This document shows positions 1 to 64,000 of a stretch of 64,000 nucleotides of DNA, one piece after another (the first letter of the stretch is position 1; every line of letters begins with the position of its first letter). A program made the position numbers and the translations under genes. A model generated the notes under the pieces. The model worked only from the letters and a program-made list of their open reading frames with translations, was not told where the DNA came from and did not search any database. Source of the DNA: an uncultured Verrucomicrobiae bacterium (GTDB taxonomy: Bacteria; Verrucomicrobiota; Verrucomicrobiia; Chthoniobacterales; UBA10450); the NCBI GenBank assembly GCA_963804875.1, contig CAWDRX010000003.1:139838-203837 (forward strand). Direction: 5' to 3'.

Positions 1-86
1 TTTAATTTATTTGGTCTGAAGTTGCGTTTCCCGAGCGCGCGCCCCGTACACCGGAAACGCACGCTCGAGAATCGCGAATAGTGTAT

Positions 87-320
87 CTAGGGATTTGGCG
101 ATGTATTAACGTTAATATCAGTCTTCTCTTCTTTCGTGGTGGTGGTGCTCCCCCCGGGTGGATTCACGATTGTCGTATTGGTTTCTTTCTTCTGGGACGG
201 TGGATTTACAATTGTGGTGTTACTTTCTTTCTTCTCCGCAGGCGGATTCACTGTTGTTGTTTTTTGCTCGCACGCAGCGAACAAGCCCAACATAGCCAAC
301 AGGTAAATGGATTTTTTCAT
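87..320 (-). CDS. Small lipoprotein with tandem 14-aa TTIVNPP(x)KKE(S/T)N repeats. Start chosen at MKK, which gives a signal peptide with lipobox LFAAC.
   Basis: ORF track 87..347 minus. An internal MKKSIYLLAMLGLFAAC signal peptide follows the annotated start. The repeats are visible in both protein and DNA. Confidence 0.5.
   Translation of the reverse strand: MKKSIYLLAMLGLFAACEQKTTTVNPPAEKKESNTTIVNPPSQKKETNTTIVNPPGGSTTTTKEEKTDINVNTSPNP
155..270. repeat. About 2.5 copies of a 42-bp tandem repeat inside the lipoprotein gene.
   Basis: gggtggattcacgattgtcgtattggtttctttcttctgggac, ggtggatttacaattgtggtgttactttctttcttctccgcag and gcggattcactgttgttg follow each other head to tail. Confidence 0.5.
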
Positions 321-630
321 ATCACTGGAATCGTATGCGGCAGCCATTCGGCCGTCTCATCGTTGACGGTTAGTTTGAATGAATCAGAGCCGCCGTCCGC
401 GTCGCGATGATACGCGGTTCGACGCGAGCGCCTCTAATGGTTAAGTATTCTTCCTAAAGAACTGTCTCAGCTTACGGCATGAGCGCCGGAGCGGTAGATT
501 CATCGAGTATCGTTGACGGTGCTTCAACTGAACTCTGTCGCCTTATTCTCAGCCGACCAACGAAAACCTCGGTCTCTTGGCCGAAGTGGTGTCGCTTCGA
601 TGTTCCCAAGTCAATAACATCCTGTAAGAG

Positions 631-3600
631 TTGTTTATGAGATTTTGGCCAAAGAAGGGCGATCCCGTGTTGGTCGTAGGCATTTTCCAAAGCGTGGGAG
701 CCGGTCGGGCCGTACTGCAGAGTCTCCATCGCGCTCGGTTTCGTCGGGCCGCGGCAATTCACGCTTCGGCCGAAGGCCGGCAGCGGGTGGAGGAACATGG
801 GATTTCGGCGATCGGCGGTTCGGCCGCCGCTTTAATTTTTAGCGTCGTTATTGGTACATTTATTTTTTGGGCGCGCGGAATGCTCGGCGATAACCGGCCG
901 GCCGGAGTGGCTCTGTCGCTGGCCGCGTTCGCGTTTGGCGGGGCGATCCTTGGCTGGATTCTCGTCCATTTGTTCCGGGAGCATGTCGATTCAGCCAGCT
1001 TCGGAAGATTCACGAAGACGATTCTGCCGAATGAAACGGTGGTCCTGGCTGAAGTCGAAGCGAGCGAAACATCGCGCGTGCTGGCGGTATTACGGGGCGT
1101 GGAAGCCGAGGCGCCCGTGACGTTCGGTTTTTACCCGCCGCCGCCTTTCTCCCTCGAATCGACCGCACGACCGCTCAGTCATGAACTGCCTTCAAGTCAG
1201 CGTCTCGTCGAAAAGGCGGCTAGCCTTGCACACGCTATCGCGGTCAGCCGAGCAGCGAAGCCGCGGGGGCCATCTTTCCTCCACCGGTTACTCAAAATCG
1301 AGGATGCGCTGGAATGGGCGAACATGAGTCTCACCATGTCGGCTGAGGCGCACCACGCCTTCACGCTTTCGGCGGAGTGGCTGTTGGATAACGCCTATTT
1401 GATTCGGGAACAGGTAGCCGATCTGCGGAAGAGTCTCCCGCAAAAACACTATGGAAAACTGCCTCTGATCGCCAGCGGCCCAGGTGTTGGTTTGCCCCGG
1501 GTTTATCACGTCGCGGCGGAAATGGTCGCCGAAACCGACGGAGCCTTGGAGTCCGAGATTATCCGGAGATTTTTGAGCGCGTTTCAGGCGATCACGCCAC
1601 TGGACATCGGAGAACTCTGGGCTCTTCCACTGATGTTGCGATTGCAGTTGCTCGAATGTTTGCGCACCCTCGCGATCCAGGTCGATCAACAACAAAGGGA
1701 AAGCGAGGAGGCAGATTTTTGGGCAAATCGGCTTATCACGGCCGCCCGGCACAGTTCACCGCGTTTGCTCAAAATAATGGAAGAACTCGTGGAACGGTAT
1801 CCGGAGCCGACGCCACACTTTGCAAGCGAACTGGTGGCGCATCTCTACGACGACGAGGGAGCGCTCCCGGTGGTGAGCGGTTGGCTGGAACGCTCGCTCC
1901 GCTCGCCGCTGCTGGAAGCCATGCAGCAGGAGCATCGACACCAGGCTGTACAGCAGACCGCGCTTACCAATGCGATCAATAGTTGTCGCCGCCTTGCGCA
2001 GATCCAATGGCGGGAACTCTTCCAACAGCTCAGCTGGGCGGAAAGCGAATTGGCCGCGGATCCGGCCGGCGTTTACGCTCGCCAGGATTTTGAAACGCGT
2101 GATCGATGCCGGAGCGCAGTGGAGGAAATCGCCCGCTGGTCAAATTGTTCGGAACAAGAAACTATCGATCACGCTCTCGCGCTGGCGAAGACTGCGCAGG
2201 ACGGAGTTGGACGGCACGTCGGCTACTACTTGATTGACGCCGGTCGACCGGTACTCGAGCAAGCCACGGGCGCGAGAATACCACTGACGGAAAGGTCGCG
2301 CCGATGGGTTCGTGCCCATGCAGCGGGCGCTTACTTCGGAAGCCTCTTGCTGATCATGACCATTTCGGTGGCGGCTCCTCTTCTTTTCGTTGCCGGGTTG
2401 GTTTCCTGCATGACACTGGGACTCCTGGGACTTCTGCTACTCTTGCCCGCGAGTGAGCTGGCGGTGCTGATCGTGAATTATTTGGTGACGTCTCTGCTAC
2501 CGCCGGAGGTCCTGCCTAAAATGTCCTTCGAAAAAGAAGGCATCCCCGAGGATTGCCGCACGCTGGTAGTGGTGCCGATGCTGCTGACCACTCCGAGCGC
2601 GATCCAAAGCCAGCTCAGTCGGCTTGAAATTCATTACCTCGGAAACACCGATCCGAATCTGCGGTTTTCACTCCTGTCAGATTTTTCTGACGCACCACGG
2701 CAGGACATGCCGGAAGATGCAGAATACATCGACATCGTGGCACGCGGTGTCGAGGAATTGAATCGCCGACATGGAGTCGGGCATTTCTTTCTTTTTCATC
2801 GCGGCCGCATGTGGAGCGAGAGCGAGCAACGCTGGATCGGCTGGGAACGCAAGCGCGGCAAGCTTGAGCAACTCAATCAATTTCTTATTGGAGAATCCAC
2901 GCCGGAGCTGGAAGGATTTCTGCGTGCGGGCGATCGTGCGCAACTCAACGGCATTCGCTTTGTCATCACCCTGGATGCCGATACCCAACTCTTGCGCGAT
3001 ACCGCCCGGAGGATGATTGAAACTCTAGCGCATCCATTAAATCAGGCGCGGCTTTCGCCAGACGCTCGCAAAGTAGTTCGCGGGTACACGATCGTTCAAC
3101 CAAGCGTCAGTGCGTCGCTTCCGAGCGCAACGGCGACATGGTTCTCACGCATTTTTGCTGATCCCCGCGGGATCGATCCTTACACGCACGCAGTCTCTGA
3201 CGTTTACCAGGATTTGTTCGGAGAAGGCAGTTATCACGGCAAGGGGATTTACGAATTGCAGACATTTCATCGGCTCTTATCGGGCCGATTTCCGACGGCG
3301 CACTTGTTGAGCCATGATCTGTTGGAAGGATGCCATGTCCGAGTAGGACTGGCGACAGACATCGAGTTGCTTGATGTCTTCCCGAATAGTTACATCTCGT
3401 GGTGGAGTCGCCAGCACCGCTGGATTCGCGGCGACTGGCAAATCATTGACTGGCTTAAGTCTTACGTGCCCGTGGGCGGCGACAGGATGGAACCCAATCC
3501 ACTTTCCATCTCCAACCGCTGGAAGATCTTCGACAATCTGCGCCGGAGTCTGGTGCCACCAACAATCATCGCCCTCCTCGTGGTCGGCTGGTTTTTCACG

Positions 3601-6600
3601 CCTGTTCCAATGGTTTGGAGCGGAATCATCGCCGGTCTGATGTTGTGGCCGGTTCTAAATTCTTTCCTCGCCTTACTGTTTCATCCGCCGCCGCCCGGAA
3701 CGAGATTTTGGCGCGACCCGCGCGACCGTCTCCTGCGGGTCATGCTGACTGTTGTTTTCCTGGCGGATAACGCGGCAATGGCGCTCGATGCCATTGTTCG
3801 CGTGATCTACCGGCGAATAATGTCGCATCGGCGGCTTTTGGAATGGGAGACTGCGGCAGACGCTCACCGGCGGGCGAGAAGTCGGCAACTGCAATTTATT
3901 CTCAGCAGACTTTGGATTCCCGCTGCATGCGTGTTGCTTTTCGCCGGCGCGGCGTCGCGGGGAACTGCGGTGATGGTAGCCGCGGCCCCCTTCCTGCTTC
4001 TGGGTGCTCTCTTTCCGGTCGCGGTGATGGTGATCAATCGGCCGGCAAAGAGTTGGCGTGGCGGAACCCTAACGTCGGAGGATCGCCGATTCCTGCACGC
4101 GGTCGCGCGACGAACGTGGAGATACTTCGATGATTTTGTTGGACCACAGACCTCTTGGTTGCCGCCGGACAATGTCCAGGAAACGCCAAAACGTGAAATT
4201 TTCATGCGCACGTCTCCGACCAACATCGGGCTGTCCATGCTGGCGACGGTCGCGGCGAACGATTTTGGTTACATCACCATCGATGAGTTGGTGGAGCGCA
4301 ACCTCCGCACGCTCGAAACCCTGGGTCGGCTCGAGCGTTTCGAAGGCCATCTTTTTAATTGGTATGACCTGAGCACTCTCGAGCCTTTGCGTCCACGCTA
4401 CGTCTCCGCCGTAGACAGCGGGAATTTGCTTGCCAGCCTGTGGACCTTCCAAACGAGCTGCAATGAGTTGGCCGCGCGTCCGCTTCTGGATGAGTCTGCA
4501 TTGCGAGGAATCGCGGACACCCTAAGCGTGCTTCGTCAAATCGCATCCAACCAGAAAGAAGCGGAACGCCCCCTGGCGTTTCTTCGCTTGGAGGGCATTA
4601 CCAGGGATCAGCCGGCAAATTTGGAAGAAATCATTGTTAGAATAAGGGCAGCTCGACAACTCGCGCACGACCTTCTGCTTCATTACCGCGGCCAGGAAAC
4701 CGATCCGCGCGTTTATTGGGCACAACAAATTTCAAAGCAGGTCGCGGCATGGAATGGCGTCATCGATAAATATCTGCGGCCGGTGGAAATTCTGATGTCG
4801 CCGCCCGCGCAATTGATGTCGTTAGGCGAAGCGACGCATGAATCTCGCAGAGAAGCGCTGGCGGCCACCTTTTCGCTGCGCAACATTGCCATCGAGGGCA
4901 TCGCTGGGCTGGTACCGCTGCTTCCTTTTTATCAGAGACGGGAGGACCAGGAAATATCCCGCGACATCCACGAGTGGCTCGATCTTCTCGTCGCAGAGGT
5001 CGACCGTTCGCGCCGGAATGCCTCGGAGCAGCTCGCGCACTTGGATGAGTTGATCGGCCAGAGCCAGCAACTGGAAGGCGGCATGGGGCTGCGATTTCTT
5101 TATGATGAGGAACGGCGAATTTTTGCCATTGGGTACCAAGTGGCTGAGCGCCGGCTTGACACTTCGTTTTACGATCTGCTCGCGAGCGAAGCGCGCTTAA
5201 CGAGCTTCCTGGCCATCGCGCGCGGAGAAGTGCCGGTAGAACACTGGTGGGCTTCGAGCCGGCCCTTTGGGTCTGCATACGGGCGTCTGCCGCTTCTGTC
5301 CTGGAGCGGGACGATGTTCGAATATTTGATGCCGCTATTATTTACTCAGACGCACGAGAATTCGCTGCTTGATCGCGCCTGTTACGATGCCGTGCATTGT
5401 CAGATTGGCTATGCCCGGCAAAACCGCGTGCCGTGGGGCATTTCGGAATCGGCCTTCAGCGCGCTCGACCGACACAACGTTTATCAATACCGAGCCTTTG
5501 GCGTCCCGGCGCTGGCTTTAAAGCGTGGGCAGGACGAAGACCTGGTCGTCGCACCGTATGCCGCCGCGCTCGCTCTCGGAGTGGAACCGGCGGCCGCGAT
5601 AAAGAATCTGCGAAGGCTCGCTAGCCTGTACGACTCAGCATTGCTCGGAGAATACGGGTACTACGAAGCGATCGATTATTCGCGACGCACGGAACTCGAC
5701 GGCGCGGCGGGAATCGTCATCCACTGTTACATGGTTCATCATCAGGGAATGTCGCTCCTGGCGTTTGCGAACGCCTTACATGACAACGCGATGCGGAAGC
5801 GATTTCATTCCGATCCGCGTATTCGGGCCACCGAGCCGCTTTTGCACGAACATATTCCGGAGCAAATTCTTCCGAGCACCGGCGAGGGGCATGAAGAACG
5901 ACCGGTAAGGCAGACGATTGCGACAGCCGGGGGCGCCGCAGTGGTGCAAATACCAGAGATCGCTTCGCCGCGCATTCATCTTCTCTCCAACGGAACTTGC
6001 TCCGTCACGGTGACCAACTCCGGTGGCGGTTACCTGCGCTGGCTGGACCTGGACGTGACGCGCTGGCGCGCCGATGCAACCTGTGACGTCTCGGGCCAGT
6101 TCTGCTACATCCGGGATTTGGAAAGTGGAACGACTTGGAGCAACACCCACCAACCGGTGAGATCTCCCGAGCGCCGTTACACCTGGACTTTCACGCCGGA
6201 CAAAGCGGAGTTTCGGCGTAGGAGTGGGCCATGCGAAACGATCACCGAAATTGTCGTCTCTGCGGAAGACAACGCGGAAGTCCGACGCGTGACCCTGGTG
6301 AATACGTCGCGGAAATCCTGTCAACTGGAGCTGACCAGTTATCTTGAGCTCGCCCTTGCGCCGCATCGGACGGACCGCGCGCATCCCGCCTTCAACAAGC
6401 TCTTCATAGAAACTGAGTGGCTGCCGAGTTGCGAAGCTCTTGTTGCCCGACGTCGACTTCGCGGTTCCGAGGATCGGCCTATCTGGGCTGCGCATCTCAT
6501 GGTCCCAGAATCCGCCATCGAGGCGCCGGAATTTGAAACCGACCGGGCCAAGTTTCTCGGCCGGGGTCGCACGCCGGAGAATCCGGAAGCGCTCACGCGC

Positions 6601-9600
6601 CATTTAACGAACAGTGTTGGTGCCGTGCTCGATCCAATATTCAGCCTGCGCCGGCGCGTCACGATTCTGCCTAACCAACGATTTCAGTTCGCGCTCGTTA
6701 CGGTGGTGGCAGATTCTCGTGAAGCGGTTGTTGCGCTGGCGGGGCGCTATTCTGAGTTTCACACTTGTGCGCGCGCTTTTGAGACCGCTTGGACCCATTC
6801 CCAACTTGAGATGCGTCGACTGCACATTCGCCGGGCCGATGTACAAACCTTTCAACAACTGGCCGGCCTGGTCATCCTTCCACAAGCCCAACTTCGACCA
6901 CCGCCGGGACGTCTTGGCCGTCGCAGCGAAGGTCAGCGAGCTCTCTGGCGACAAGGCATTTCGGGTGATCTGCCGATCGTCGTCGTCATGATTGGTCACC
7001 TCCGTGACATGGAAGTCGTGCGAGAGATATTGACCGCACATACCTTCTGGCATCTGCGCGGCCTGAAGGTCGATCTCGTCCTGGTGAGCGAGGAAGTGGC
7101 CAGTTACGACGAACCACTGACGGAAAATCTGCGTCGACTTACCGAAGCGCAGGCGCACTTAACCGGCGTCGATCAACCTGGCGGCGTCTATCTTCGCTCG
7201 GCAACAAAAATTTCAAAGGAAGAGCTGCTCGCACTTCAAGCGGCTGCGCGGATGGTGCTCGTCGCAGCTCGAGGCACATTGCGCCAACAACTTGCCGCGA
7301 GCGCGCCCGCGGCTGGGAAACCGCGTCTGTTGTTGCCCGGACACCAGTTCCGCGAAGAGCCCTCTGCGCCTTTGCCTTTCATGGAACTGAAATATTTTAA
7401 CGGTCTCGGCGGCTTTACCGAGGACGGCAAGGAATTCGTCATTTATCTGGGGCCCAATCGACAGACACCGCTTCCTTGGATCAACATCATGGCGAATCCG
7501 AAATTCGGCGCATTGATTTCCGAGTCCGGCGCGGAATGTATCTGGGGCCGCAATAGCCAGAACGATCGTCTCACGCCGTGGTTCAATGATCCGGTCTGCG
7601 ATCCGCCCGGAACCGCCATTTATATTCGCGATGATGAGATCGGGGTCGTGTGGTCGCCAACGCCCCAACCGATTCGCGAGACGGACGCCTATCGCGCGCG
7701 GCATGGTCAGGGTTACACTACATTTGAGCACAACAGCCACGCGATCGAACAATCGCTGCTCACTTTCGTGCCGGTCGATGATTCCGGGGGAAAGCCGGTG
7801 CGCTTGCAGCGTCTGCGCTTGCGTAACAATTCGTCGCGCCGACGAAAGCTGACTATCACCGCCTATGCCACGCTCGTGCTCGGACCCGATCCAGAGGAAA
7901 CCGGTATGCATATCGTTACGAAATGGGATTTGCAGAGCCAAAGCCTGTTTGCCCGCAATTCCTACAACCCGGAATTTTGCGATTGCATCACCTTCGCCAC
8001 TTTGGCTCCAACGCCTACTTCGTTCACCGCTGATCGCGCGGAGTTCATCGGGCGCAACCGTTCGCTGCGCGATCCGGCCGGGATGGAGAACGAACGATTG
8101 ACCGGCGACGTTGGCGCCGGCCACGATCCTTGCGCAGCGGTGCAAGTCGTAGTCGAAATTGAACCGGGGGACACCGCCGAAATGACTTTTCTTCTCGGAC
8201 AGGCGGACGACGAAGAAAAAGCGCGTGGACTCGTTAGGCATTTCCGCGATCCAGCGAATGTCGAAGCTGCATTTCAGGAAACCCGCCAATGGTGGGACCG
8301 ACTCCTAAGCACGATCGAAGTGGAAACACCCGAGCTTTCCACAAACTTTCTATTCAATCGCTGGCTGCTGTATCAAACCCTCAGCTGCCGGGTCTGGGGC
8401 CGCTCGGCCCTTTATCAATCGAGCGGCGCTTACGGGTTTCGAGACCAGTTGCAAGATGTCATGGCTCTCGTGCACGCTGCGCCGCAGTTGGCTCGCGAGC
8501 ACATCCTGCGCGCAGCCGCACGGCAATTCGTGGAGGGTGATGTGCAGCATTGGTGGCACCCAGAGTCTGGCGCCGGCGTCCGGACGCGTATCAGTGACGA
8601 TCTTCTCTGGCTTCCCTTCGTCACCGCGCATTACGTTCGCACCACCGGCGACGCCGAGATCCTCGATCAGATGGTTCCATTCCTCGACGGTAAACCGTTG
8701 GAGGAACAACAGACCGAGAGTCTTTCCATTCCGGTCGCGTCCACCACGCAAGGATCTTTGCTCGAACATTGCCGGCGGGCCATCGCGCGCTCTGCAACTG
8801 CCGGTCCGCATGGATTGCCTTTGATCGGAACTGGGGATTGGAATGACGGCCTTAATCGCGTTGGATTGGGCGGCAAAGGTGAAAGCGTCTGGCTCGCCTG
8901 GTTTGAGATTTGTGTGCTGAAAGACTTCGCGGAGTTGCTGACTCTACGCGAACTGGGCGATGAAGCGCGCGCCTGCCGCGTCCGCGCCGCGCACTTGGCT
9001 AAAACCGTTGACGCCCAGGCATGGGATGGAGCTTGGTATCGTCGCGCGTATTTCGACGACGGCACGCCTCTGGGCTCGAAAAAGAACAACGAGGCCCGCA
9101 TCGATTCACTTCCACAAAGCTGGGCTGCGATTTCCCGTGCTGGCGACGCCGATCGCATTGAGGTCGCACTGCGATCGCTTGAAGAAAATCTCGTCCGTGA
9201 AGCCGACGATCTAATTTTACTCTTTACTCCGCCGTTCGACAAAACCGCCGCCGACGTTGGCTACATCAAGGGTTATCCTCCCGGAGTGCGGGAAAACGGC
9301 GGCCAATACACGCATGGCGCCACCTGGGTGGCCCTGGCTTTTGCTCGCCAAGGAGATGGCGATACAGCCGTCCGACTCTTACGGATGCTGAATCCTGTCG
9401 AACATGCCCGGAACGAGGAAGACTGTGAACGCTATAAGGTTGAGCCTTACGTTATTCCCGGCGATGTCTATTCGTTAACCGGCCAGGTTGGACGTGGAGG
9501 TTGGACTGGTACACTGGCGCAGCGGCCTGGACTTACCGCGTCTGGCTTGAAGAAATTCTGGGTTTCCAACGTCGCGGCGATACCGTCACGATCAATCCGG

Positions 9601-9708
9601 TTATACCGAAAGATTGGCCTGGCTTTCGTCTGCGATACCGTTTCCAAAACACCACTTATCGCTTCGCTGTCGAGAATCCTGACTGCTGTTCGCGAGGTGT
9701 TATTCTAG
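631..9708 (+). CDS. ndvB: Cyclic beta-1,2-glucan synthase (NdvB/ChvB/Cgs-like). It has N-terminal TM segments, a GT84-like glycosyltransferase region and a C-terminal GH94 glucan-phosphorylase-like domain. The start may be the TTG at 631 or the ATG at 637.
   Basis: Single 3025-aa ORF. Motifs EWLLDNAYLIREQ, ITLDADTQL (DxD), GDWNDGLNRVG (GH94) and the (alpha/alpha)6 region YTHGATWV are present. The predicted TM hairpin spans the later in-frame Met at 880, so the upstream start is preferred. Confidence 0.8.
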   Translation: MFMRFWPKKGDPVLVVGIFQSVGAGRAVLQSLHRARFRRAAAIHASAEGRQRVEEHGISAIGGSAAALIFSVVIGTFIFWARGMLGDNRPAGVALSLAAFAFGGAILGWILVHLFREHVDSASFGRFTKTILPNETVVLAEVEASETSRVLAVLRGVEAEAPVTFGFYPPPPFSLESTARPLSHELPSSQRLVEKAASLAHAIAVSRAAKPRGPSFLHRLLKIEDALEWANMSLTMSAEAHHAFTLSAEWLLDNAYLIREQVADLRKSLPQKHYGKLPLIASGPGVGLPRVYHVAAEMVAETDGALESEIIRRFLSAFQAITPLDIGELWALPLMLRLQLLECLRTLAIQVDQQQRESEEADFWANRLITAARHSSPRLLKIMEELVERYPEPTPHFASELVAHLYDDEGALPVVSGWLERSLRSPLLEAMQQEHRHQAVQQTALTNAINSCRRLAQIQWRELFQQLSWAESELAADPAGVYARQDFETRDRCRSAVEEIARWSNCSEQETIDHALALAKTAQDGVGRHVGYYLIDAGRPVLEQATGARIPLTERSRRWVRAHAAGAYFGSLLLIMTISVAAPLLFVAGLVSCMTLGLLGLLLLLPASELAVLIVNYLVTSLLPPEVLPKMSFEKEGIPEDCRTLVVVPMLLTTPSAIQSQLSRLEIHYLGNTDPNLRFSLLSDFSDAPRQDMPEDAEYIDIVARGVEELNRRHGVGHFFLFHRGRMWSESEQRWIGWERKRGKLEQLNQFLIGESTPELEGFLRAGDRAQLNGIRFVITLDADTQLLRDTARRMIETLAHPLNQARLSPDARKVVRGYTIVQPSVSASLPSATATWFSRIFADPRGIDPYTHAVSDVYQDLFGEGSYHGKGIYELQTFHRLLSGRFPTAHLLSHDLLEGCHVRVGLATDIELLDVFPNSYISWWSRQHRWIRGDWQIIDWLKSYVPVGGDRMEPNPLSISNRWKIFDNLRRSLVPPTIIALLVVGWFFTPVPMVWSGIIAGLMLWPVLNSFLALLFHPPPPGTRFWRDPRDRLLRVMLTVVFLADNAAMALDAIVRVIYRRIMSHRRLLEWETAADAHRRARSRQLQFILSRLWIPAACVLLFAGAASRGTAVMVAAAPFLLLGALFPVAVMVINRPAKSWRGGTLTSEDRRFLHAVARRTWRYFDDFVGPQTSWLPPDNVQETPKREIFMRTSPTNIGLSMLATVAANDFGYITIDELVERNLRTLETLGRLERFEGHLFNWYDLSTLEPLRPRYVSAVDSGNLLASLWTFQTSCNELAARPLLDESALRGIADTLSVLRQIASNQKEAERPLAFLRLEGITRDQPANLEEIIVRIRAARQLAHDLLLHYRGQETDPRVYWAQQISKQVAAWNGVIDKYLRPVEILMSPPAQLMSLGEATHESRREALAATFSLRNIAIEGIAGLVPLLPFYQRREDQEISRDIHEWLDLLVAEVDRSRRNASEQLAHLDELIGQSQQLEGGMGLRFLYDEERRIFAIGYQVAERRLDTSFYDLLASEARLTSFLAIARGEVPVEHWWASSRPFGSAYGRLPLLSWSGTMFEYLMPLLFTQTHENSLLDRACYDAVHCQIGYARQNRVPWGISESAFSALDRHNVYQYRAFGVPALALKRGQDEDLVVAPYAAALALGVEPAAAIKNLRRLASLYDSALLGEYGYYEAIDYSRRTELDGAAGIVIHCYMVHHQGMSLLAFANALHDNAMRKRFHSDPRIRATEPLLHEHIPEQILPSTGEGHEERPVRQTIATAGGAAVVQIPEIASPRIHLLSNGTCSVTVTNSGGGYLRWLDLDVTRWRADATCDVSGQFCYIRDLESGTTWSNTHQPVRSPERRYTWTFTPDKAEFRRRSGPCETITEIVVSAEDNAEVRRVTLVNTSRKSCQLELTSYLELALAPHRTDRAHPAFNKLFIETEWLPSCEALVARRRLRGSEDRPIWAAHLMVPESAIEAPEFETDRAKFLGRGRTPENPEALTRHLTNSVGAVLDPIFSLRRRVTILPNQRFQFALVTVVADSREAVVALAGRYSEFHTCARAFETAWTHSQLEMRRLHIRRADVQTFQQLAGLVILPQAQLRPPPGRLGRRSEGQRALWRQGISGDLPIVVVMIGHLRDMEVVREILTAHTFWHLRGLKVDLVLVSEEVASYDEPLTENLRRLTEAQAHLTGVDQPGGVYLRSATKISKEELLALQAAARMVLVAARGTLRQQLAASAPAAGKPRLLLPGHQFREEPSAPLPFMELKYFNGLGGFTEDGKEFVIYLGPNRQTPLPWINIMANPKFGALISESGAECIWGRNSQNDRLTPWFNDPVCDPPGTAIYIRDDEIGVVWSPTPQPIRETDAYRARHGQGYTTFEHNSHAIEQSLLTFVPVDDSGGKPVRLQRLRLRNNSSRRRKLTITAYATLVLGPDPEETGMHIVTKWDLQSQSLFARNSYNPEFCDCITFATLAPTPTSFTADRAEFIGRNRSLRDPAGMENERLTGDVGAGHDPCAAVQVVVEIEPGDTAEMTFLLGQADDEEKARGLVRHFRDPANVEAAFQETRQWWDRLLSTIEVETPELSTNFLFNRWLLYQTLSCRVWGRSALYQSSGAYGFRDQLQDVMALVHAAPQLAREHILRAAARQFVEGDVQHWWHPESGAGVRTRISDDLLWLPFVTAHYVRTTGDAEILDQMVPFLDGKPLEEQQTESLSIPVASTTQGSLLEHCRRAIARSATAGPHGLPLIGTGDWNDGLNRVGLGGKGESVWLAWFEICVLKDFAELLTLRELGDEARACRVRAAHLAKTVDAQAWDGAWYRRAYFDDGTPLGSKKNNEARIDSLPQSWAAISRAGDADRIEVALRSLEENLVREADDLILLFTPPFDKTAADVGYIKGYPPGVRENGGQYTHGATWVALAFARQGDGDTAVRLLRMLNPVEHARNEEDCERYKVEPYVIPGDVYSLTGQVGRGGWTGTLAQRPGLTASGLKKFWVSNVAAIPSRSIRLYRKIGLAFVCDTVSKTPLIASLSRILTAVREVLF

Positions 9709-9903
9709 TGGAATTGGACGGCGTTTCGGTAGCCGACAAAATTGTAAAGTTGCGTGACGATGGACAAACTCACGAAGTGCGTGTTGTCATGGGAAACAAA
9801 CCCTCCACGTAAGCCGTTGCTCCGCCGAAAATCGTTTCCCATAACAGATTGCGCTTGGTCAGAACAATACTGCGTCACGCATTCTTCCGAGAGAGAGATG
9901 GGA

Positions 9904-18091: not shown

Positions 18092-18145
18092 GGAACGGCC
18101 GTGATTACGGCAAAGCAATGGTGAATGCAGCGTCGCTCGTGTCTG

Positions 18146-20136
18146 TCACCGACGGAGTTTCGTGGAAGTGTATTCGCACCTTCGCTGTCGTCGTGGCAGG
18201 GCCAGGCACGGTCCAGAATACCATCCGGTGTCCGGTGCTTGAGTCGCGATTGTTATCCACGTGGCACCGTTGTCGGTGCTGTAATCAATGTCGACAGTGT
18301 TGCCGCCGGGGTTTTGTCGGGTCCAGTGGATGTTTCGGTGCTGACCGATCGTCCAGATTTCTCCGCCGTTCGGCCTGAGAAGCGTGAGGAATGGTCTGCG
18401 CTGCACAGTGAAGTTGGCGTCGCTCTGGTCTGCGATGGACCGATTGCGTTGCAACAAAATCTTCACCCTGCCCTGAGTGGTAGGGAAATTATCGACATGC
18501 CACGAATAGCTTAACGATAACGCCGGGATGTCCTGCGCGATCCTAAACCAGGTAGCTCCACCGTTGCGGCTGTATTGGATTATCAGACGGTCGCTGTTCG
18601 TCAGGTTGGCGCCCTCCCACTGGATCTCCTGGACGCTCCCCATGGACCAGACTTCTCCGCCGTTAGGCTCGATGACGCGCAGCGGCGACGTTGTCGGCGT
18701 AGGTGTTGGTGTGGGCGCAGTGTTGGATATGGCCCACCACAATATCTCCCGCCGGTGTTCAAGAACTGAAGCTAGCCGCAGCAATTAGATCCAGCCCAAA
18801 CGATCATTTCACTGCCGGTCCAGACTGCAGTGTGTTGGTATCGGGCAAATGGCGCGTATGTGGTACTGGTGGCAGTCCACGTATTCGTGCCGGGATCGTA
18901 TCTCCCACCGGTGTCTCGATAGCCGGTGATGTCAACTCCACCCCAAACGATCATTTCATTGCCGGTCCAGACTGCACTGTGACCAGTTCGGGCAGAAGGC
19001 GCGTTAGTGGTGCTGGTGGCCGTCCAACTATTCGTACCTGGATTGTATCTCCCGCCACTGTCGAGGCCCAGGGGAGAGGGGTCCTGATTTCCGCCCCAGA
19101 CGATCATTTCATTGCCGGTCCACACTGCGGTGTGAAGGGCTCGCGGAGATGGCGCGTTGTGGTGGTAGTCGGTGTCCAACTATTAGTGCTGGGATTGTAT
19201 CTCCCGCCTGTGTTAGTGGCAGGGTATCCACCCCATACGATCATTTCGCTGCCGGTCCAGACTGCCGTTTGCTGGGCGCGGGCAGAGGGTGCGTTGGTGG
19301 TGCTGGTGGCTGTCCAACTGTCCGTGCTGGGATTGTATCTCCCGCCACTATTTAAATTCATCGTGTCGCCGGATCCGCCCCAGACGACTATTGCGCTGCC
19401 GGTCCAGATTGCGGTGTGAAGGTATCGGCCAGCGGGCGCGTTGGTGGTGCTTGTGGCTGTCCAACTATCCGTGATGGGATTGTATTTCCCGCCGGTATTC
19501 AAAAGGTTGGCGTTATTAGAGCCACCCCAAACGATCATTTCGACTGCCAGTCCAGATTGCGGTGTGCCACTCTCGGCCAGCGGGCGCATTGGTGGTGCTT
19601 GTGGCTGTCCAACTATCTGTGCTGGGATTGTATCTCCCGCCGGTGTTCAAATCCGGGTTGCCGCCCCACCCGCCCCAGACAATCATTTCACTGCCGGTCC
19701 AGATTGCCGTGTGATTGGTTCGGACAGAGGGGACATGAAACATGCTCGTAGCCCCCCACTGGTCACTGAACACGCGCTCGGCAATCTCCGGCAGAGTGTA
19801 CACAACTTGCTCCGATGTTGTTGCCACCGACATCGCACCGAGCACATCGGTCTGCTGGCGATTCAACGTGCTGAGTTTGATCTTGCGCCGAAAGATCCGC
19901 GAGCCAGCGCTCTGTTAATATTGGTCTGGCCAAACACTCAGCGATGACAGCCGGATCATTTCCGAGAGCATCAAACAATTCGCGGAGGACATCCGGCTGT
20001 TTTGTGTCCCGGGCCATTCGCTCCATCTCGGCCTGCAATTGCGGAGCAGTGATTGGCTTTTGCCGTAGTTTTCCAGAGCGAGTGAGTCGCGCAAATAGCC
20101 TGCGACTTTGTTTTCCAATTGCGCCTGAGACATCAC
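18146..20136 (-). pseudogene. Disrupted gene, or low-quality stretch. Kelch-repeat beta-propeller fused to two C-terminal Kre9/KNH-like Ser/Thr-rich Ig-like domains. It is spread over at least five reading-frame changes.
   Basis: Overlapping minus-strand ORFs 19915..20136, 19763..20038, 19516..19866, 19104..19589, 18772..19179 and 18146..18784 carry successive Kelch blades (RYNPSTDSWTATSTTNAP...HTAVWTGSEMIVWGG). They are followed by PNGGEVW...IQW...YSxxGGATW domains. Confidence 0.5.
18790..19700. repeat. Near-identical tandem repeats of about 150 bp, each encoding one Kelch blade.
   Basis: The motifs cccaaacgatcatttcattgccggtccagactgc and gtccaactattcgtgctgggattgtatctcccgcc recur at least six times with few substitutions. 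Confidence 0.6.
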
Positions 20137-20520
20137 CGAATCGAGCGACGGCTTGGGATTAGGATTCTCCTTTGGCCAAATACGGTGACGCCAGTAAACG
20201 TCTTCAATTGCTCCGCTGATATGCTACGCGCTCGACGAAGCTGAACGCTCGGGATTGGCTCTGTTTTCGGCGTTGTCGGCGATTGAAATGCTGGAACCAA
20301 GCGCGACAAAGACTACCGACAGAAACACAGCCGACGCGGCGCTGCGGATGATATGGTCATGGATTTTGCTTTTCGTTTTCATCTCTTGTTTTTCTTCCCG
20401 GAAAAATTCCTCAATAAATTTTGGAAGAAGTAAAGCCGAATTCGCCTGCGCAAGCTCCGCTTATCGTGCGAATTGCTAAGCGCTCGCGCTAAATCGTAAG
20501 ATCGAAATTCGAAAATAGAG

Positions 20521-28520: not shown

Positions 28521-29076
28521 ATGAAATCTTTTTCGCTCTATCTGTTCATCGTACTGCAATTAACAGTGTTCTCCGCGGCAGGACAGCCCACTCCAACGCC
28601 TGTGCGCGACGGATCTCATGACTTCGATTTTCTTATCGGCAACTGGAAAGCACACGTGCGCCGGCTACCCGATCGCCTGGTTGGTTCCAATAACTGGATC
28701 GAGTATAACGGCATCTCGAATCACAAGAAGCTTCTCGATAGCAATGCAAATTTCGAAGAATTCGAAGTCGACAATCCGGAGAAGCACCTGCACATCAAGG
28801 GCCAGACGTTAAGATTGTACAATCCGGATTCGCATCAATGGAGCATTTATCTTCTTGATCTGGATAAGGGCGTTCTAGTCCTCCACCGGTTGTTGGGGAA
28901 TTTAATGGAAACCGTGGCGAGTTTTATGACCAGGAACAATACAAGGGTCGGGCCATTCTGGTGCGCTACGTTTGGCAAAATATTTCACCGAAAACGGCGC
29001 GAATGGAACAATCCTTCTCGGCTGACGGCGGAAAGACATGGGAAACAAACTGGATCTGCGAATTGAGTCGATAGTC
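28521..29076 (+). CDS. Secreted hypothetical protein with an apparent single-base frameshift around 28862..28890.
   Basis: ORF 28497..29066 loses protein-like character after ...LDLDKG. An alternative frame continues as PVVGEFNGNRGEFYDQEQYKGRAILVRYVWQNISPKTARMEQSFSADGGKTWETNWICELSR to a stop at 29076. Confidence 0.45.
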
Positions 29077-43559: not shown

Positions 43560-44146
43560 AAAGGCGGCACCCCGCTGAATTAGAAAACCAGAGTCGTCTC
43601 GCACTCGGCGCACCCGGGTGCGAGCGGCTTTCTAGTGGCCACGCCTGATGCCGGCGCGGTCTGTGGTTGATTTGGATTCGCCCTTAACACCGCCGCCAGC
43701 CTTGACGTCTTTTCTAGGTTGGAGGTCACGAATAATGGCCTCTTTTATCTCGTTTTTCAGCCTGCGCCAAACGGATCGGACCGTGTTGACGCTTGGCTCG
43801 TGTGTATTCTTGCTCAAACAGCCTTTCCTTCCCCAGTTTATGGTGGCCAACGTTTTAGCAACGACTCCGGGTCAGAGCAAGTTGAAAAACGCTTCGCGGC
43901 CGCGGCCGTTTCTGAGGAGCGCTTGTGCCCTCGCGTGTCGGTTTGATAGCCTGGCCATCGCTTCGCGTCGCAGCGGCGCCCTCGACGAGATCCAAATTAA
44001 AGTATTCCAAATCAGTGCTATCCGGGCCATCCGTGGTTGAGTTATTGATTCTTGGCGGTCCTTTTGTTCCATCTGGCTTCACCGTTTCAACTTCTCATAC
44101 CGGTACGGCTTGACGGCGCGAAGGGCGATGCATCACGCTAGGGTTT

Positions 44147-54249: not shown

Positions 54250-54659
54250 ATGGAATCTGCCGCGTCCCCGTCCGATCCAGCTGACGTCGAGTCGATCCAC
54301 GCGATCATCACGGCGGCTTACGACGAAATTTTAGGCCCGACTGGAAAGAAGGGCGATTGGGATCGCGAGCGCTCTTTGTACTTTCCAGGTGCACGTTTCC
54401 AACCGCGATGAAGGCTGAAGGCCCGCCTTCAACAGGCTCCGGCGTGGCAGTAGAGAAGGTCGGTCTCGCGCCGCAGATTTTGGACATCGACGGATTCATC
54501 GCGCGGGTCGAACCGTTCTTTAAGGAGAATGGCTTCTACGAAAAGAATCGCGCGGTGCAGCGAACAATTTGGCAACAACGCCCGTGTCTGGAGTATTCCG
54601 ATTGCACAGCGCTACCCACCCGCCGAAACGCGAATCGCGCGATCGATTGCCTGAGTTAA
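54250..54659 (+). CDS. Possible small NTF2-like protein, interrupted by a frameshift. Low confidence.
   Basis: Frame 1 reads MESAASPSDPADVESIHAIITAAYDEILGPTGKKGDWDRERSLYFPGARFQP then a stop. An adjacent frame continues as ...KAEGPPSTGSGVAVEKVGLAPQILDIDGFIARVEPFFKENGFYEKNRAVQRTIWQQ... Confidence 0.3.
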
Positions 54660-58574: not shown

Positions 58575-58578
58575 GAGT

Positions 58579-59862: not shown

Positions 59863-61407
59863 CAGGCAGTCTCCAGATTCATTGGCGCAATTTGTGCTAT
59901 CGGTTCACGCGCGGTGGAATGAGCTGTTGCGACTCCCATGTCCGTTAGAAGCAAACGAGAGCTGATCCGCGCGGATTCGAAAATCACAGGCAGCCCACTG
60001 CCCGGATGGGTGCCGCCGCCAACAAGGTAAATACCATCGACATCCTCAAAACGATTGTGCGGTCGAAGGTGCAGCATCTGATCGAGGCTGTGGGCGAGAT
60101 TGAACGTCGCGCCCTGGTGGATCTCGTATTTCGTGTCCCAATCGGCCGGCGTGATGACGCGCTCGAAACGGATGCGCTTTTCGATGTCGGTGAAGCCGGC
60201 TTTCGCGATTTGGCGCAGCATCTTCGCGCGAAAACACTCGCGCTCGCGTGACCAATCGACGTTCGGATGCTGGTGCGTGACCGGAACTAGCACGTAGAGC
60301 GTGCTCATGCCCCGTGGTGCGAGCGTCGGATCGGTGACGCACGCGTTCTGCACGTAAAATGACGGGTCGTCGGACAGGACGTGCTCGTCTTCGATCTCGT
60401 CAAGGTTCCGCGCGTAGTCGGCGGCGATGTGAATGGTGTGGTGCGGCAGATCGAACGCGCCGTCGACGCCGAGATACATCATGAAGGTCGAGCAGGAGAA
60501 TTTCTTGCGCGCAATCTTGCGATCGGTCCAACGACGACGAAGCCGATCGGGCACGAGGCGCTTCATGGCGCGGGCGAAGTCGGCGTTCATCACAATCGCG
60601 CTCGCCTTTTCTATTCCCGCCGCTGTGCGCACGCCGACCGCGCGTCGTCCTTCGAAAAGGACTTCTTCGACAGGGTGTTCACACAGATCTCCACACCGAG
60701 GCGCTCGGCTACGCGCGCCATCGCCGCGGTCACCGCGGCGCAACCACCGATGGGATGGAACACGCCGTATTCGTATTCGAGAAACGAGAGGATCGAGAAC
60801 AGGCTCGGGCAGTGAAATGGCGACATGCCGAGGTATTTGGATTGGAAAGAAAACGCCAGGCGGATTCGTGGATCGGCAAAGAAACGGCGTGAGATAAGTG
60901 TCGATCGATTGATGCGGCCGAAGCATCGGGAGCATCTTGAGCAGACGGGTATTGCAGCAGATCCTGCCAACCGAGAAACGGCGTCTCAAGGCATGGCTCC
61001 ATGCGAGCGAGCTTGATCCGATTTTCGTTTAGGAACCGTCGAAACCCAGGCGCGTCACCCGGCGCGATCGCGGCGATCTGTTGTTCCATGCGCGCGATGT
61101 CCGGCGTCGCATTGAGCTCGCCACCCTGACCGAAGATGATGCGGTATTGCGGATCGAGCCGCACCATTTCCACTTCGGTCCGGAGGAAGCTGCCGGCTGC
61201 GGCGAAGATTTCTTCGAGCACGCGCGGGTAAAGGAAAAACGTCGGGCCGAGATCGAACTTAAAGCCGTTCGCCTCGATCGATGAGGTGCGTCCGCCGATG
61301 GTCGGGAGACGTTCAATGATCTTCACTTTCACCCCCGCCGAGGCAAGGAGGATGGCCGAGGCGAGGCCGCCGGGACCGGCGCCGATGATAATGACATCGT
61401 GTTTCAT
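59862..61407 (-). CDS. Second CrtI/CrtN-family desaturase/oxidase. It reads through three frames, with apparent frameshifts near 60970 and 60650.
   Basis: N-terminus MKHDVIIIGAGPGGLASA in ORF 60730..61407. Middle YGVFHPIGG...VAERLGVEI segment in ORF 60611..60970. C-terminal part in ORF 59862..60989. Total about 515 aa. Confidence 0.65.
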
Positions 61408-61432
61408 AGAGTAATTGCCAACCGGGAAGAGG

Positions 61433-61654: not shown

Positions 61655-61807
61655 AGGTGTTACTTCAGTTCTGGAGTTCTCCCCTGAACTACTCCGCTGA
61701 AAGCGTGGTTGTTGGGGCTTTGGCTAAATCGATCGGGTCTGGACTCAGCGGCCGTTTGAAGAAGGAAACCGAACGATTGGAAATGCGCCGTCCGCCGGAT
61801 TCGGGAT

Positions 61808-61924
61808 TCACGCTGCCGTCGAGTCTTTTTGAACCTCCGCAAAGTCCGCAGCCGCCAGGAGTCCCTTCGCGACGATTCCCGTCACGGCGAGGCCGAAGCA
61901 AAAAATAGGGAAAAGAAATTCAAA
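61808..61924 (-). CDS. Possible 39-aa hydrophobic peptide (MFEFLFPIFCFGLAVTGIVAKGLLAAADFAEVQKDSTAA).
   Basis: Its ATG lies 2 nt after the stop of the upstream 64-aa membrane ORF. Below the ORF-track size cut-off. Confidence 0.25.
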   Translation of the reverse strand, partial: FEFLFPIFCFGLAVTGIVAKGLLAAADFAEVQKDSTAA

Positions 61925-61929
61925 CATAT

Positions 61930-62124
61930 TTAGTCTTCTTTGGTTTGGCTGATGGCGTTGCCTAGGAGGACAAGACGAACGCCGACCCAGAGGATCAGAA
62001 TGCTGGGAACCCAGAGACCGACGAACACGCCGTAATCGCGGTTCACTAGGAACCAGAGGGAGACGCTGGCAAGGAGGCTCAGAGCTGAGGCCCAAAGAAA
62101 AGGATGATCGACTTTATTAAACAT
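61930..62124 (-). CDS. Small two-TM membrane protein (64 aa). First gene downstream of the AT-rich promoter region.
   Basis: ORF track. Two hydrophobic helices. Confidence 0.35.
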   Translation of the reverse strand: MFNKVDHPFLWASALSLLASVSLWFLVNRDYGVFVGLWVPSILILWVGVRLVLLGNAISQTKED

Positions 62125-62164
62125 AATCGTGAGTGAGTTGGGTGGTTGTGTGGTGGAGCGAGAC

Positions 62165-62300
62165 TAACAAACGTCTAATATATGTATAGGATTTGATTAG
62201 CTTGTCAATGATTTGTTCATATTTAAATTCTCAGCTCGATTTTCATTGGTTAATTCCTACGAACTTCCAATATTTCAGACCTCCTACTTGCGCTCTGTCT
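62165..62300. promoter_or_regulatory. AT-rich divergent promoter/operator region between the carotenoid operon and the CarH-like gene. Contains direct repeats GATTTGATTA and GATTTGTTCA 20 bp apart and a TTGTCA -35-like hexamer.
   Basis: Local AT content far above the window average. Repeats at 62190..62199 and 62210..62219. Confidence 0.35.
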
Positions 62301-62327
62301 GAGTTATGTCTAGATTCTAGCCGTCAA

Positions 62328-63272
62328 ATGCCGGACGCCCATCACTCGATCAAAGCTGCCTCGCGGATAACCGGGCTCTCGCCTCATCTCATTCGCATTT
62401 GGGAGAGGCGTTATGGTGCCGTGGCACCCGAACGAACCGACACGAATCGCCGTCTTTATTCCGACGCAGAGATTCAGCGGCTAAACTTGCTGCGCTTGGC
62501 CACTGGCGCGGGGCACAGCATTGGCAACATCGCGAAACTGCCGTTGGGCCGCCTCAAGTCCCTGCTAGCAAAAGCGGGGGTTGGCGAATCCGGAGTGCCG
62601 CGCACCAAAATGGCTTCGTCACCGGCGAAAGGCTTTCGTGACGCCAGCCTGGCTGCTGTCGAAAAACTGGACGCTCAATTATTTGAGGAGACCTTGGGCA
62701 AGGCGGTCGTCGCCCTGGGCCACCAAGGTCTGTTGCGACAGGTTGTGGGTCCACTGGCGCAGACGATTGGCGAACTTTGGCGGACCGGTGTGCTCACGGC
62801 GGCGCACGAGCATTTTTTCACCGCGGGGTTGAAAGTGTTCCTCGGCCATTTGTCGGGACAATTTGCCGTGCCCGCAAACGCCCCTCGTATTGTCGTCGCC
62901 ACTCCGGCCGGACAATTGCACGAGCTTGGCGCCGTCATCGTGAAGGACGCTGCCGCACAGATCGGCTGGCACACCACTTATCTGGGCGCCAGTTTGCCGG
63001 CCGCGGAAATTGCCGGCGCTGCGGTGCAAAGTAGAGCTGCCGTGGTGGCTCTGAGTATTGTCTATCCGGAAGACGATCCCGATCTTGTTCGGGAACTCAT
63101 TAGCCTTCGGCGTTTCCTCCCGCCGGAGGTGAAGATTCTGGCCGGAGGCCGGGCAGCGTCGGCTTATTCTGAACCGCTGCTGCGCATCGGGGCCGTGATG
63201 ACGGAAAACATCGAGGAATTTTGCAACCAGCTCGATAAGCTACGCCGGTCATCGAAGGCTAAATCCGCGTGA
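62328..63272 (+). CDS. MerR-family regulator with a C-terminal cobalamin-binding domain (CarH/LitR-like light-responsive regulator).
   Basis: MerR HTH SIKAASRITGLSPHLIRIWERRYG. B12-binding_2 helix bundle GELWRTGVLTAAHEH. Rossmann B12 motif GQLHELGAVIV ... ALSIVY ... LAGGRAA. Start set at MPDAHHS. Confidence 0.75.
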   Translation: MPDAHHSIKAASRITGLSPHLIRIWERRYGAVAPERTDTNRRLYSDAEIQRLNLLRLATGAGHSIGNIAKLPLGRLKSLLAKAGVGESGVPRTKMASSPAKGFRDASLAAVEKLDAQLFEETLGKAVVALGHQGLLRQVVGPLAQTIGELWRTGVLTAAHEHFFTAGLKVFLGHLSGQFAVPANAPRIVVATPAGQLHELGAVIVKDAAAQIGWHTTYLGASLPAAEIAGAAVQSRAAVVALSIVYPEDDPDLVRELISLRRFLPPEVKILAGGRAASAYSEPLLRIGAVMTENIEEFCNQLDKLRRSSKAKSA

Positions 63273-63282
63273 GGATTCGCAA

Positions 63283-63720
63283 TTCAAGCGCACAACGTGG
63301 CTTCAACGTCCGGTTTCCGAGGTCTTTCCGTTTTTCGCAGACGCCGCAAATCTCGAACTGCTTACGGCTCCCGGGCTCCATTTTCGCGTCCTGACTTCTC
63401 GGCCGATCAAATTCGGCTGGGAACCTTGATTGATTACCGGATTCGCGTTCACAGGAATACTGTTGCGCTGGCAAAGCGAAATCACAGCATGGGACCCCGC
63501 CCCGCAGCTTCGCCGACGAACAGCGCCGCGGGCCCTATCGATTCTGGCGGCACGAGCATAAATTTGTAGAACGCGACGGCGGGACAGCCGTTTTCGCCGA
63601 GGTGCAATATGCCGTGCCCTTTGATTTTCTGACGCACCGATTATTTGTGCGGCCGGACATCGAGCGAATCTTCGATTTTCGCGAACAAAAGATGCGCGAA
63701 CTTTTTCCTAGCCCTAGCTA
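63283..63720 (+). pseudogene. SRPBCC-family (START/Bet v1-like) protein gene. It reads through four frames (three indels) and has no in-frame start codon.
   Basis: Family segments lie in successive frames: ...VFPFFADAANLELLTAPGLHFRVLTS, then GTLIDYRIRV, then ILLRWQSEITAWDP, then FADEQRRGPYRFWRHEHKFVERDGGTAVFAEVQYAVPFDFLTHRLFVRPDIERIFDFREQKMRELF and a stop. Confidence 0.5.
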
Positions 63721-64000
63721 AAACTGCAGACGCGTTTTTCCTGTTCGTTTCGCGATCGCGCCGAGCCGCTTCGCGGCGACGATCGTTAAAATAGCAACCT
63801 CATGAGGCCTGTCACAGCTTCGCAACCGGGAGCTTGCTGCGAGGACATACTTCTGGACCTCGCCGGTGGCTGCATTCGACAGTTCGGACAAAAATTGGAT
63901 TCGTTGGGGACACTTGAAGTGCGCAAGATGACCACGAGCGCAATTGCTTAGCTCGGTTTCCGTCGCGGTCGCGCCTGCTTTTAAGACGACAAACGTGAGA

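Follow-up and report, generated by a model that had tools for sequence, protein, structure and literature searches.

Does a stretch of bacterial DNA in which several conserved genes change reading frame record the decay of those genes, or the errors of an assembly? The question is raised by the window analyzed here, a stretch of 64,000 nucleotides in a contig from an uncultured soil Verrucomicrobiae bacterium of the order Chthoniobacterales (Verrucomicrobiota), where the original prediction had pointed to a high density of single-base frameshifts and had interpreted them as likely assembly errors. Comparison with orthologous sequences indicates that the frameshifts are very probably indel errors left over in a long-read consensus, and not gene decay; the finding is a data-quality issue, not biology.

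Frameshift-aware protein-to-DNA alignment to orthologues located approximately 23 frame-breaking indels in 9 of the ~50 protein genes of the window, as follows:

631..9812, + strand: giant GH94 / cyclic-glucan-synthase-like gene; one shift (1 nt missing at 9507)
18108..20382, − strand: Kelch-repeat / Kre9-like secreted protein, ~766 aa when repaired; eight frame changes and an in-frame TAG
21231..23307, − strand: M13 metallopeptidase, 692 aa when repaired; one shift (1 extra nt at 22428-22433, TTTCCCGAAAATT)
28521..29071, + strand: secreted protein of ~184 aa, related to DUF1579/BNR-annotated proteins; one shift (1 nt missing near 28882, within 28877-28883)
41388..43575, + strand: Band_7/SPFH-domain protein; one shift (1 extra nt near 43509)
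54250..54597, + strand: 54250 gene, conserved family with no Pfam match; two frame changes (54396 and 54541)
59865..61407, − strand: CrtI-family desaturase, first gene of a carotenoid-type operon, 514 aa when repaired; three shifts
61663..61927, − strand: 89-aa membrane protein gene; two shifts (missing A at 61825, A6 to A5; missing C at 61749, CCC to CC)
63269..63718, + strand: SRPBCC / Polyketide_cyc protein, 150 aa when repaired; four frame changes

All six genes named in the original prediction are broken where it had placed the breaks, and the high density of frameshifts is real and larger than it had claimed, with three broken genes (GH94, Band_7 and the 89-aa gene) that it had not mentioned. 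The suggested range of one to five shifts per gene was too narrow, since we found between 1 and 8. Most events are 1-nt indels, insertions being nearly as frequent as deletions, and their density is ~0.4 per kb of coding sequence, versus ~0.01 per kb in short-read orthologues. Frameshifts outnumber nonsense codons by 23 to 1. The main shifts were also recovered by a codon-usage Viterbi trace.

Clustering of the shifts is strong (index of dispersion 2.2–4.5, P ≤ 5e-5): the densest clusters hold 9 events within 2.9 kb and 8 events within 2.1 kb, and stretches of 9–14 kb have none. This clustering is not predicted by a uniform error model, yet it is the same in long-read relatives. According to a hand count, homopolymer runs of at least 3 nt hold 5 of the 13 well-placed events, versus 15% of all bases, which is a modest enrichment; the earlier remark that shifts fall in short runs is correct for some of them, and weak as an argument. 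Short-run sites are seen at 61825 (A6/A5), 60672 (C4/C3) and 63495 (C-run). We noticed neither IS elements nor large deletions in the window, whose coding density is normal, and the displayed parts of the 16S rRNA showed no obvious indel at conserved positions, where only ~0.6 events would be expected.

In order to compare these genes with those of relatives, we employed as short-read references the Logan contigs L083 (90.75% nt identity) and L082 (86.5%), as well as one JGI contig; the closest short-read references are different species, with at most 91% nt identity. L001 (contig_50969, a Flye-style name), which comes from a related strain, is 91–97% identical to the window.

The four genes with single shifts illustrate the pattern in its simplest form. 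At position 9507 of the GH94 gene, the window reads GGAC-TGG, versus GGACTTGG in L001. The annotated 3025-aa ORF ends falsely at 9708, and the true C-terminus lies in the frame of ORF 9501-9812, extending to ~9812. The main-frame match to the Pfam GH94 catalytic domain breaks off at model position 401 of 420, the codon-usage trace changes frame at 9502, and the frameshift-aware alignment (94% identity over 679 aa) reads ...VGRGGWT up to the shift and WYTGAAAW beyond it. The Pfam Peptidase_M13_N domain is divided over two ORFs in the window; once repaired, the M13 peptidase aligns along its entire length (100%) with P0121, an intact protein of 692 aa, at 90% identity, and the site at 22428-22433 is the sole 1-nt indel when the gene is compared to L082. 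The shift in the 28521 gene was mapped by frameshift-aware alignment to P0002, P0007 and other proteins, and an intact 186-aa orthologue is present in L082 (88% identity, with 184 of 186 aa aligned). In the Band_7 gene, the last ~20 codons are out of frame and the true stop lies near 43575, not at 43559; the frameshift-aware alignment to L083 spans 729 of 731 aa (95% identity) and places a single shift at 43510, in agreement with the DNA alignment to the same contig.

A second group of shifts lies in the carotenoid-type cluster, whose sequence at 60.6–63.5 kb is not repetitive. The CrtI gene carries an extra nucleotide near 60955, another near 60886, and lacks a C at 60672 (CCCC to CCC), three events on which six short-read orthologues agree (85–86% identity, no stops). 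After repair it shares 95% identity with its L083 counterpart, which is intact at 514 aa, and CrtI is also intact (514 aa) in the JGI contig. The truncated 225-aa product forms a singleton cluster in the protein collection. A same-species CrtI was not found in JGI metagenome contigs, the best match having 90% amino-acid identity. The shifts of the 89-aa gene were seen in the DNA alignment to L083; in the frameshift-aware alignment the gene is covered over 89 of 89 aa at 78% identity, and it has orthologues of ~77–86 aa in L003 and L007. In the SRPBCC gene, nucleotides are missing at 63280 and 63407, one is extra at 63453, and an extra C is present at 63495 in a C-run; the gene is thus broken as had been proposed, by four shifts rather than three, and the example given for it, in which gaccccgccccgc should read WDPPRSFADEQ, is correct. 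The repaired protein matches Pfam PF03364 over positions 2–119 of 126 and shares 86% identity with the product of the L083 gene, which is intact at 150 aa. In all, nine shifts fall in three genes totalling 2.2 kb, versus none in the 6.3 kb of the five remaining genes of this cluster.

The Kelch/Kre9 gene is the most heavily affected. Three-frame tracing and frameshift-aware alignment placed its shifts at 20245, 20211, 20059, 19776, 19541, 19158, 18721 and 18218, and an in-frame TAG is present at 18772-18774. Since no intact Kelch/Kre9 orthologue was found (the locus in L084 and L085 holds just a Kre9-like gene of 124 aa), this repair was made by hand, on the basis of internal repeats and of L001. 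The repaired protein matches the Pfam Kelch and Kre9_KNH models. At 18217, 20065 and 20213, the base that restores the frame is present in L001, whose Kelch gene carries 16 other frameshifts. In the tandem repeats, identity between the window and L001 falls from 97.5% to 91.6%, with a great many shifts in either assembly.

The 54250 gene differs from the others in that it is a real 3'-truncated remnant. The original prediction had considered the broken genes to be otherwise intact, which is correct for most of them, but here only the first 118 of ~172 codons are present, and the C-terminal third was found nowhere in the window. Homologues are 76–82% identical over the aligned part, and homology stops at 54597, beside a synteny breakpoint at 54609; L083 lacks the segment 51186-54609. 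The change at 54396 has a net effect of −1, with probably 4 nt missing, and that at 54541 corresponds to 2 missing nucleotides, perhaps with two A-runs each one A short. Because the gene is truly truncated, these two frame changes may be real decay.

One further feature stands outside the total:

43732..43935, + strand: small hypothetical ORF; possible frame changes at 43851 and 43888

This ORF is only 65% identical to a 70-aa ORF of L083, and may not be a gene at all. Other candidates were rejected. Signals of the codon-usage trace at 37560-37835 and 51275-51502 are false and correspond to PT-rich linkers. Two other frame changes flagged by this trace are real gene boundaries: the one at 11710 (11437-12119), which had been suspected to be a frameshift shared with L001, turned out to reflect two genes, of 47 aa and 98 aa, which L084 has as well, and the one at 61931 lies where two small genes meet, both of them conserved in L003, L007 and L034. 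An indel at 63841 was left out of the count, as this position is intergenic in L083.

The comparison with orthologues, a check put forward in the original prediction, thus allowed the indels to be placed gene by gene. Genes broken in the window are intact in short-read relatives (CrtI, 514 aa; M13, 692 aa; SRPBCC, 148–150 aa; 28521 orthologue, 186 aa), and 1-nt coding differences from L082 and L083 are confined to the listed sites, with only net in-frame indels elsewhere. After repair, the genes are stop-free and full length (CrtI 514/514, M13 692/692, SRPBCC 150/150 aa), the exceptions being the Kelch TAG and the 54250 gene. Identity to L082/L083 is 78–95% for repaired genes (mean ~89%) and 80–96% for their intact neighbours (mean ~89%), with no extra amino-acid divergence in the broken genes. 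Indeed, full-length, stop-free genes that are conserved like their intact neighbours support the interpretation of the frameshifts as errors.

L001 provides a comparison of another kind. Over the shared ~13.6–13.8 kb it has 19 frameshifts versus 9 in the window, with no clearly coinciding shift; one site, in the low-complexity PT-linker at 18721, is ambiguous. L001 is broken where the window is intact (a DUF72 gene, a 581-aa gene, the GH94 gene and 16 Kelch sites), and intact where the window is broken (9507, 18217, 20065 and 20213).

As a control, frameshifts were counted in the corresponding five-gene operon of 71 related MAG loci, 38 of them short-read. Over 190 kb, the long-read loci had 99 frameshifts (0.52 per kb) and a single stop; over 175 kb, the short-read loci had 2 frameshifts (0.011 per kb) and no stops, a ~45-fold excess for long-read MAGs in the same operon. 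Seventeen of the 33 long-read loci were affected, with shifts clustered as in the window. In 80 CrtI loci from JGI metagenomes, a single frameshift was found in 120 kb. Several long-read MAGs, which are GTDB species representatives of the order, had up to 24 frameshifts per 6-kb operon. The relatives are dominated by MFD MAGs, which were assembled from Nanopore reads alone, using Flye followed by a single Medaka round (PMC12313526). Nanopore bins below ~40x require short-read polishing, and indels fragment gene calls (PMC9262707). The source contig, at 203,837 bp, has a size typical for long-read soil assemblies.

We propose that the contig most likely derives from noisy long reads only (Nanopore, with a Flye-type consensus) that were not polished with short reads. 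At poorly supported places of the consensus, single bases, and occasionally two to four, would be gained or lost. Poor support could stem from low depth, mixed strains or repeats, and local depth or strain mixture could account for the clustering. Each indel error shifts the frame, and gene callers therefore report as split or truncated what is an intact gene in the organism. Real mutations specific to this strain may nevertheless exist at individual sites, given that the short-read references are at most 91% identical at the nucleotide level.

Alternatively, the frameshifts could be real, in a strain undergoing gene decay whose broken genes are recent pseudogenes. The concentration of shifts in particular genes, the multiple hits in several of them, the in-frame TAG of the Kelch gene and the truncated 54250 remnant at a synteny breakpoint are what such a reading would draw upon, but we consider it very unlikely. 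Genes with multiple hits have no extra substitutions (the repaired CrtI is 95% identical to L083, as compared to 85–93% for intact neighbours), 23 frameshifts stand against one nonsense codon, and structural truncation is limited to the 54250 locus, with no IS elements or large deletions noticed and a normal coding density. Neutral decay of a dead pathway would also predict something other than nine shifts in three genes and none in the remaining five of the cluster. Finally, the lesions are not shared with L001, which has a different, equally dense set, and frameshifts track assembly technology over the 71 loci. A variant in which the strain and, independently, L001 have a very high small-indel mutation rate focused on particular segments is in our view highly improbable; if true, this high rate would act on the tandem Kelch repeats and on the start of the light-regulated carotenoid cluster, and it would generate recent multi-hit knock-outs with no other signs of decay.

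It is possible, although we hold it only tentatively, that the consensus is chimeric, i.e., that co-occurring strains were collapsed and that indels arose where reads disagree, especially in repeats or variable segments. The densest cluster indeed lies in the tandem Kelch repeats, where identity to L001 drops, closely related strains are present in the collections, and gene-local clustering is also seen in long-read relatives; the second cluster, however, is not repetitive, and mixed strains would be a sub-type of the assembly-error explanation rather than a true alternative to it. That some of the shifts are programmed, through ribosomal frameshifting or through transcriptional slippage on a slippery stretch like the A-run at 61825, has a negligible probability. 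Although a few sites do lie in short runs (61825, 60672, 63495), a slippery motif is absent at most sites, short-read orthologues are single-frame at the same positions (38 MAG loci and 80 JGI loci), and 3–8 shifts per gene in both directions are unlike known cases such as prfB and dnaX.

If the frameshifts are consensus errors, as we favor, annotation of the window would misreport approximately one-fifth of its protein genes as split, truncated or pseudogenic, and the first desaturase would seem, in error, to be missing from the carotenoid pathway. The listed sites should thus be corrected or masked by anyone who relies on the contig to infer pathways, build pangenomes, count pseudogenes or compile protein databases. 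The frameshift-rich long-read GTDB representatives of the order carry the same warning for users of those references.

The window resembles Nanopore-only assemblies (Flye + Medaka, with no short-read polishing), known from R9/R10 MAGs and the Microflora Danica long-read catalogue and including the related long-read MAGs, in that single-base indels fragment conserved genes; in such assemblies their frequency varies with depth. It differs in that the literature stresses homopolymers, whereas here runs of at least 3 nt account for under half of the well-placed events, insertions nearly equal deletions in number, and events are strongly clustered. Decaying genomes, such as those of Mycobacterium leprae and of recently host-restricted symbionts, accumulate pseudogenes, and the many frameshifted genes of the window, together with the one truncated remnant, recall them; unlike such genomes, however, the window shows no excess of substitutions, almost no nonsense codons, an intact operon structure and normal coding density, and its breaks are not shared with L001 and track assembly technology. 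In programmed ribosomal frameshifting, known from prfB, dnaX and IS transposases, the coding sequence also goes on in another frame, but the genes of the window have no conserved slippery site, have single-frame orthologues, and shift several times in both directions.

Indels were placed with a purpose-written protein-to-DNA aligner that permits frame changes, employing orthologues from short-read assemblies as queries. In the whole window, this frameshift-aware alignment yielded approximately 23 indel events in 9 of about 50 protein genes:

GH94 ORF (3025 aa): T missing at 9507; the real C-terminus reaches approximately 9812
20382 to 18108, minus strand, Kelch/Kre9 gene: eight events and one in-frame TAG
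M13 peptidase gene: one extra nucleotide at 22428-22433
28521 gene: one missing nucleotide near 28882
Band_7 gene: extra nucleotide near 43509
54250 gene: one frame change at 54396, another at 54541
61407 to 59865, minus strand, CrtI gene: extra nucleotides near 60955 and near 60886, missing C at 60672
61927 to 61663, minus strand, 89-aa gene: one base missing at 61825 (A6 to A5) and one at 61749
63269-63718, plus strand, SRPBCC gene: four events, at 63280, 63407, 63453 and 63495

The same three CrtI events were recovered with six different orthologues. The original prediction had described frame-broken genes and interpreted the breaks as assembly indel errors. Its observation is confirmed and extended: three-frame translation verified the breakage of every gene it named, and its example, gaccccgccccgc, is the SRPBCC event at 63495, but its list was incomplete, as the GH94, Band_7 and 89-aa genes are also affected. 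A tenth affected gene, the small ORF at 43732-43935, is doubtful, and frame switches at 11710 and 61931 were rejected as indels, being ordinary small-gene boundaries also found in relatives. Insertions were almost as frequent as deletions in the tally of alignments (approximately 9-10 versus approximately 13). The homopolymer argument of the original prediction carries little weight, since just about 5 of the 13 precisely placed events lie within runs of at least 3 nucleotides (background, 15%). In the 16S rRNA gene, where less than one event is expected, no obvious indel was seen.

The window (G+C approximately 55%) carries these genes alongside the following features:

20520-20594, tRNA-Ile, and 21103-21175, tRNA-Ala: approximately 8.7 kb downstream of the 16S rRNA gene
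29857-31419, minus strand: bacterial 16S rRNA gene
51291-53549: secreted repeat protein, 752 aa
54250-54597: 3'-truncated remnant of a conserved family without Pfam assignment
62328-63269, divergent, upstream of the carotenoid-type operon, with the SRPBCC gene next: MerR/B12-binding regulator
63718-64000, minus strand: AMP-binding gene (acyl-CoA synthetase-like), 3' end

The usual tRNA-Ile, tRNA-Ala and 23S genes are absent 3' of the 16S rRNA gene. The two tRNA genes of the window lie in the order Ala then Ile, with a GIY-YIG nuclease gene (20739-21029) in between, and no 23S rRNA gene is present within the window; the layout resembles that of unlinked rRNA genes. The minus-strand carotenoid-type operon (region 54612-63718) encodes CrtI-A, an aldehyde dehydrogenase, CrtI-B, an acyltransferase, a GT2 glycosyltransferase and a thioredoxin-like protein, in an order kept in approximately 70 Chthoniobacterales loci; the B12-binding type of the MerR protein suggests putative light regulation. 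The 89-aa gene (61663-61927) and a 64-aa gene (61933-62124), both for small membrane proteins, adjoin each other and are read in different frames, an arrangement also present in four related loci (L003, L007, L034 and L083). The AMP-binding ORF extends approximately 47 codons beyond the end of its AMP-binding_C domain. A 1-nt difference from L083, which lacks the AMP-binding gene, is located at 63841 and may represent a further shift close to the stop of that gene.

The syntenic short-read contigs L082 (86.5% nucleotide identity, window 21.2-29.7 kb) and L083 (90.75% over 54.6-63.9 kb, also covering 37.8-43.9 and 49.1-51.2 kb), both from Logan, carry the affected genes intact, and a JGI contig carries an intact 514-aa CrtI gene and a 148-aa Polyketide_cyc gene. 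All frame-breaking coding indels relative to these relatives fall at the sites listed; in genes intact on both sides, the window differs solely by indels whose net effect preserves the frame. A related strain, L001 (ENA ERZ25039583, 'contig_50969'; 91-97% identity, window 7.6-21.2 kb), has breaks at places that are unbroken in the window: 16 such sites lie in the Kelch gene, and DUF72, a 581-aa gene and the GH94 gene are affected as well. At the window breaks 9507, 18217, 20065 and 20213, L001 has the restoring base. Since the two dense sets of frameshifts are private to each genome, they are as noise would predict and argue against inheritance.

Real decay of the broken genes would be the alternative, but there is no sign of it. 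Three or four independent neutral frameshifts per gene should bring many substitutions and some nonsense codons, whereas the window holds 23 frameshifts to 1 nonsense codon. Repaired genes are full length without stop codons, and their identities to the closest short-read relatives (CrtI 95%, Band_7 95%, M13 90%, 28521 gene 88%, SRPBCC 86%) equal those of intact neighbours (80-96%); repaired M13, at 692 aa, matches its nearest intact homologue exactly in length (90% identity, 100% coverage). The in-frame TAG at 18772-18774 in the Kelch gene, the sole nonsense codon seen in any broken gene, reads GAG in L001; either a substitution error or a true mutation may account for it. The fusion of Kelch repeats to Kre9-like domains (18108-20382) is confined to the window/L001 lineage; in the relatives L084 (11450-11842) and L085 (2147-2521), the MBOAT gene is succeeded by just a Kre9-like gene of 124 aa, with the tRNAs directly behind it. 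The 54250 gene is different in kind, a real remnant whose frame changes could be real: only the first 118 of approximately 172 codons are present, and homology ends at 54597, adjoining 54609, where synteny with L083 resumes. The segment 51186-54609, which includes this remnant and the 752-aa protein, is missing from L083 and is an insertion or rearrangement junction.

Frameshift density in the window, approximately 0.4 per kb of coding sequence, exceeds chance; the carotenoid-type operon has 0.011 per kb in short-read MAGs, and CrtI orthologues on 80 JGI metagenome contigs have 1 event in 120 kb. Spread is uneven (eight events in 18.2-20.3 kb, nine in 60.6-63.5 kb, none across stretches of 9-14 kb; index of dispersion 2.2-4.5, P <= 5e-5), and because of this clustering a local cause is required, plausibly low depth, or strain mixture in repeats or variable segments. 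Across the Kelch repeats, window-L001 identity drops from 97.5% to 91.6%. Taken together, it is very probable that the indels are assembly errors, as originally interpreted.

In a scan of GTDB species representatives, the aldehyde dehydrogenase of the window matched almost exclusively Chthoniobacterales/Verrucomicrobiota MAGs (60-80% amino-acid identity), many with 'MFD...' names and Flye-style 'contig_N' names; the platform of the window contig (203,837 bp, in NCBI and ENA) is inferred from its length, neighbours and error signature. When five proteins of the operon were aligned to 71 related loci, the 33 with Flye-style contig names (31 Microflora Danica (MFD) long-read loci and similar ones) showed, over 190 kb, 99 frameshifts and a single stop, confined mainly to 17 loci and often grouped in one gene (8 in CrtI-B of L045; 22 in CrtI-A and the aldehyde dehydrogenase gene of L067). 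The 38 short-read loci, covering 175 kb, had no stops and just 2 frameshifts, both belonging to one distant locus. Long-read GTDB species representatives carry 24 (L067), 21 (L055), 15 (L049) and 10 (L045) frameshifts in the operon of approximately 6 kb. The value of this analysis lies in a corrected gene list with coordinates, and in alerting users to the same problem in related public long-read MAGs, a database-quality issue well beyond this window. The frameshifts are very probably a familiar type of assembly artefact rather than a biological feature. According to earlier work from the MFD group (PMC9262707), consensus indels lead to frameshift errors, and short-read polishing is needed for metagenome bins below approximately 40x.
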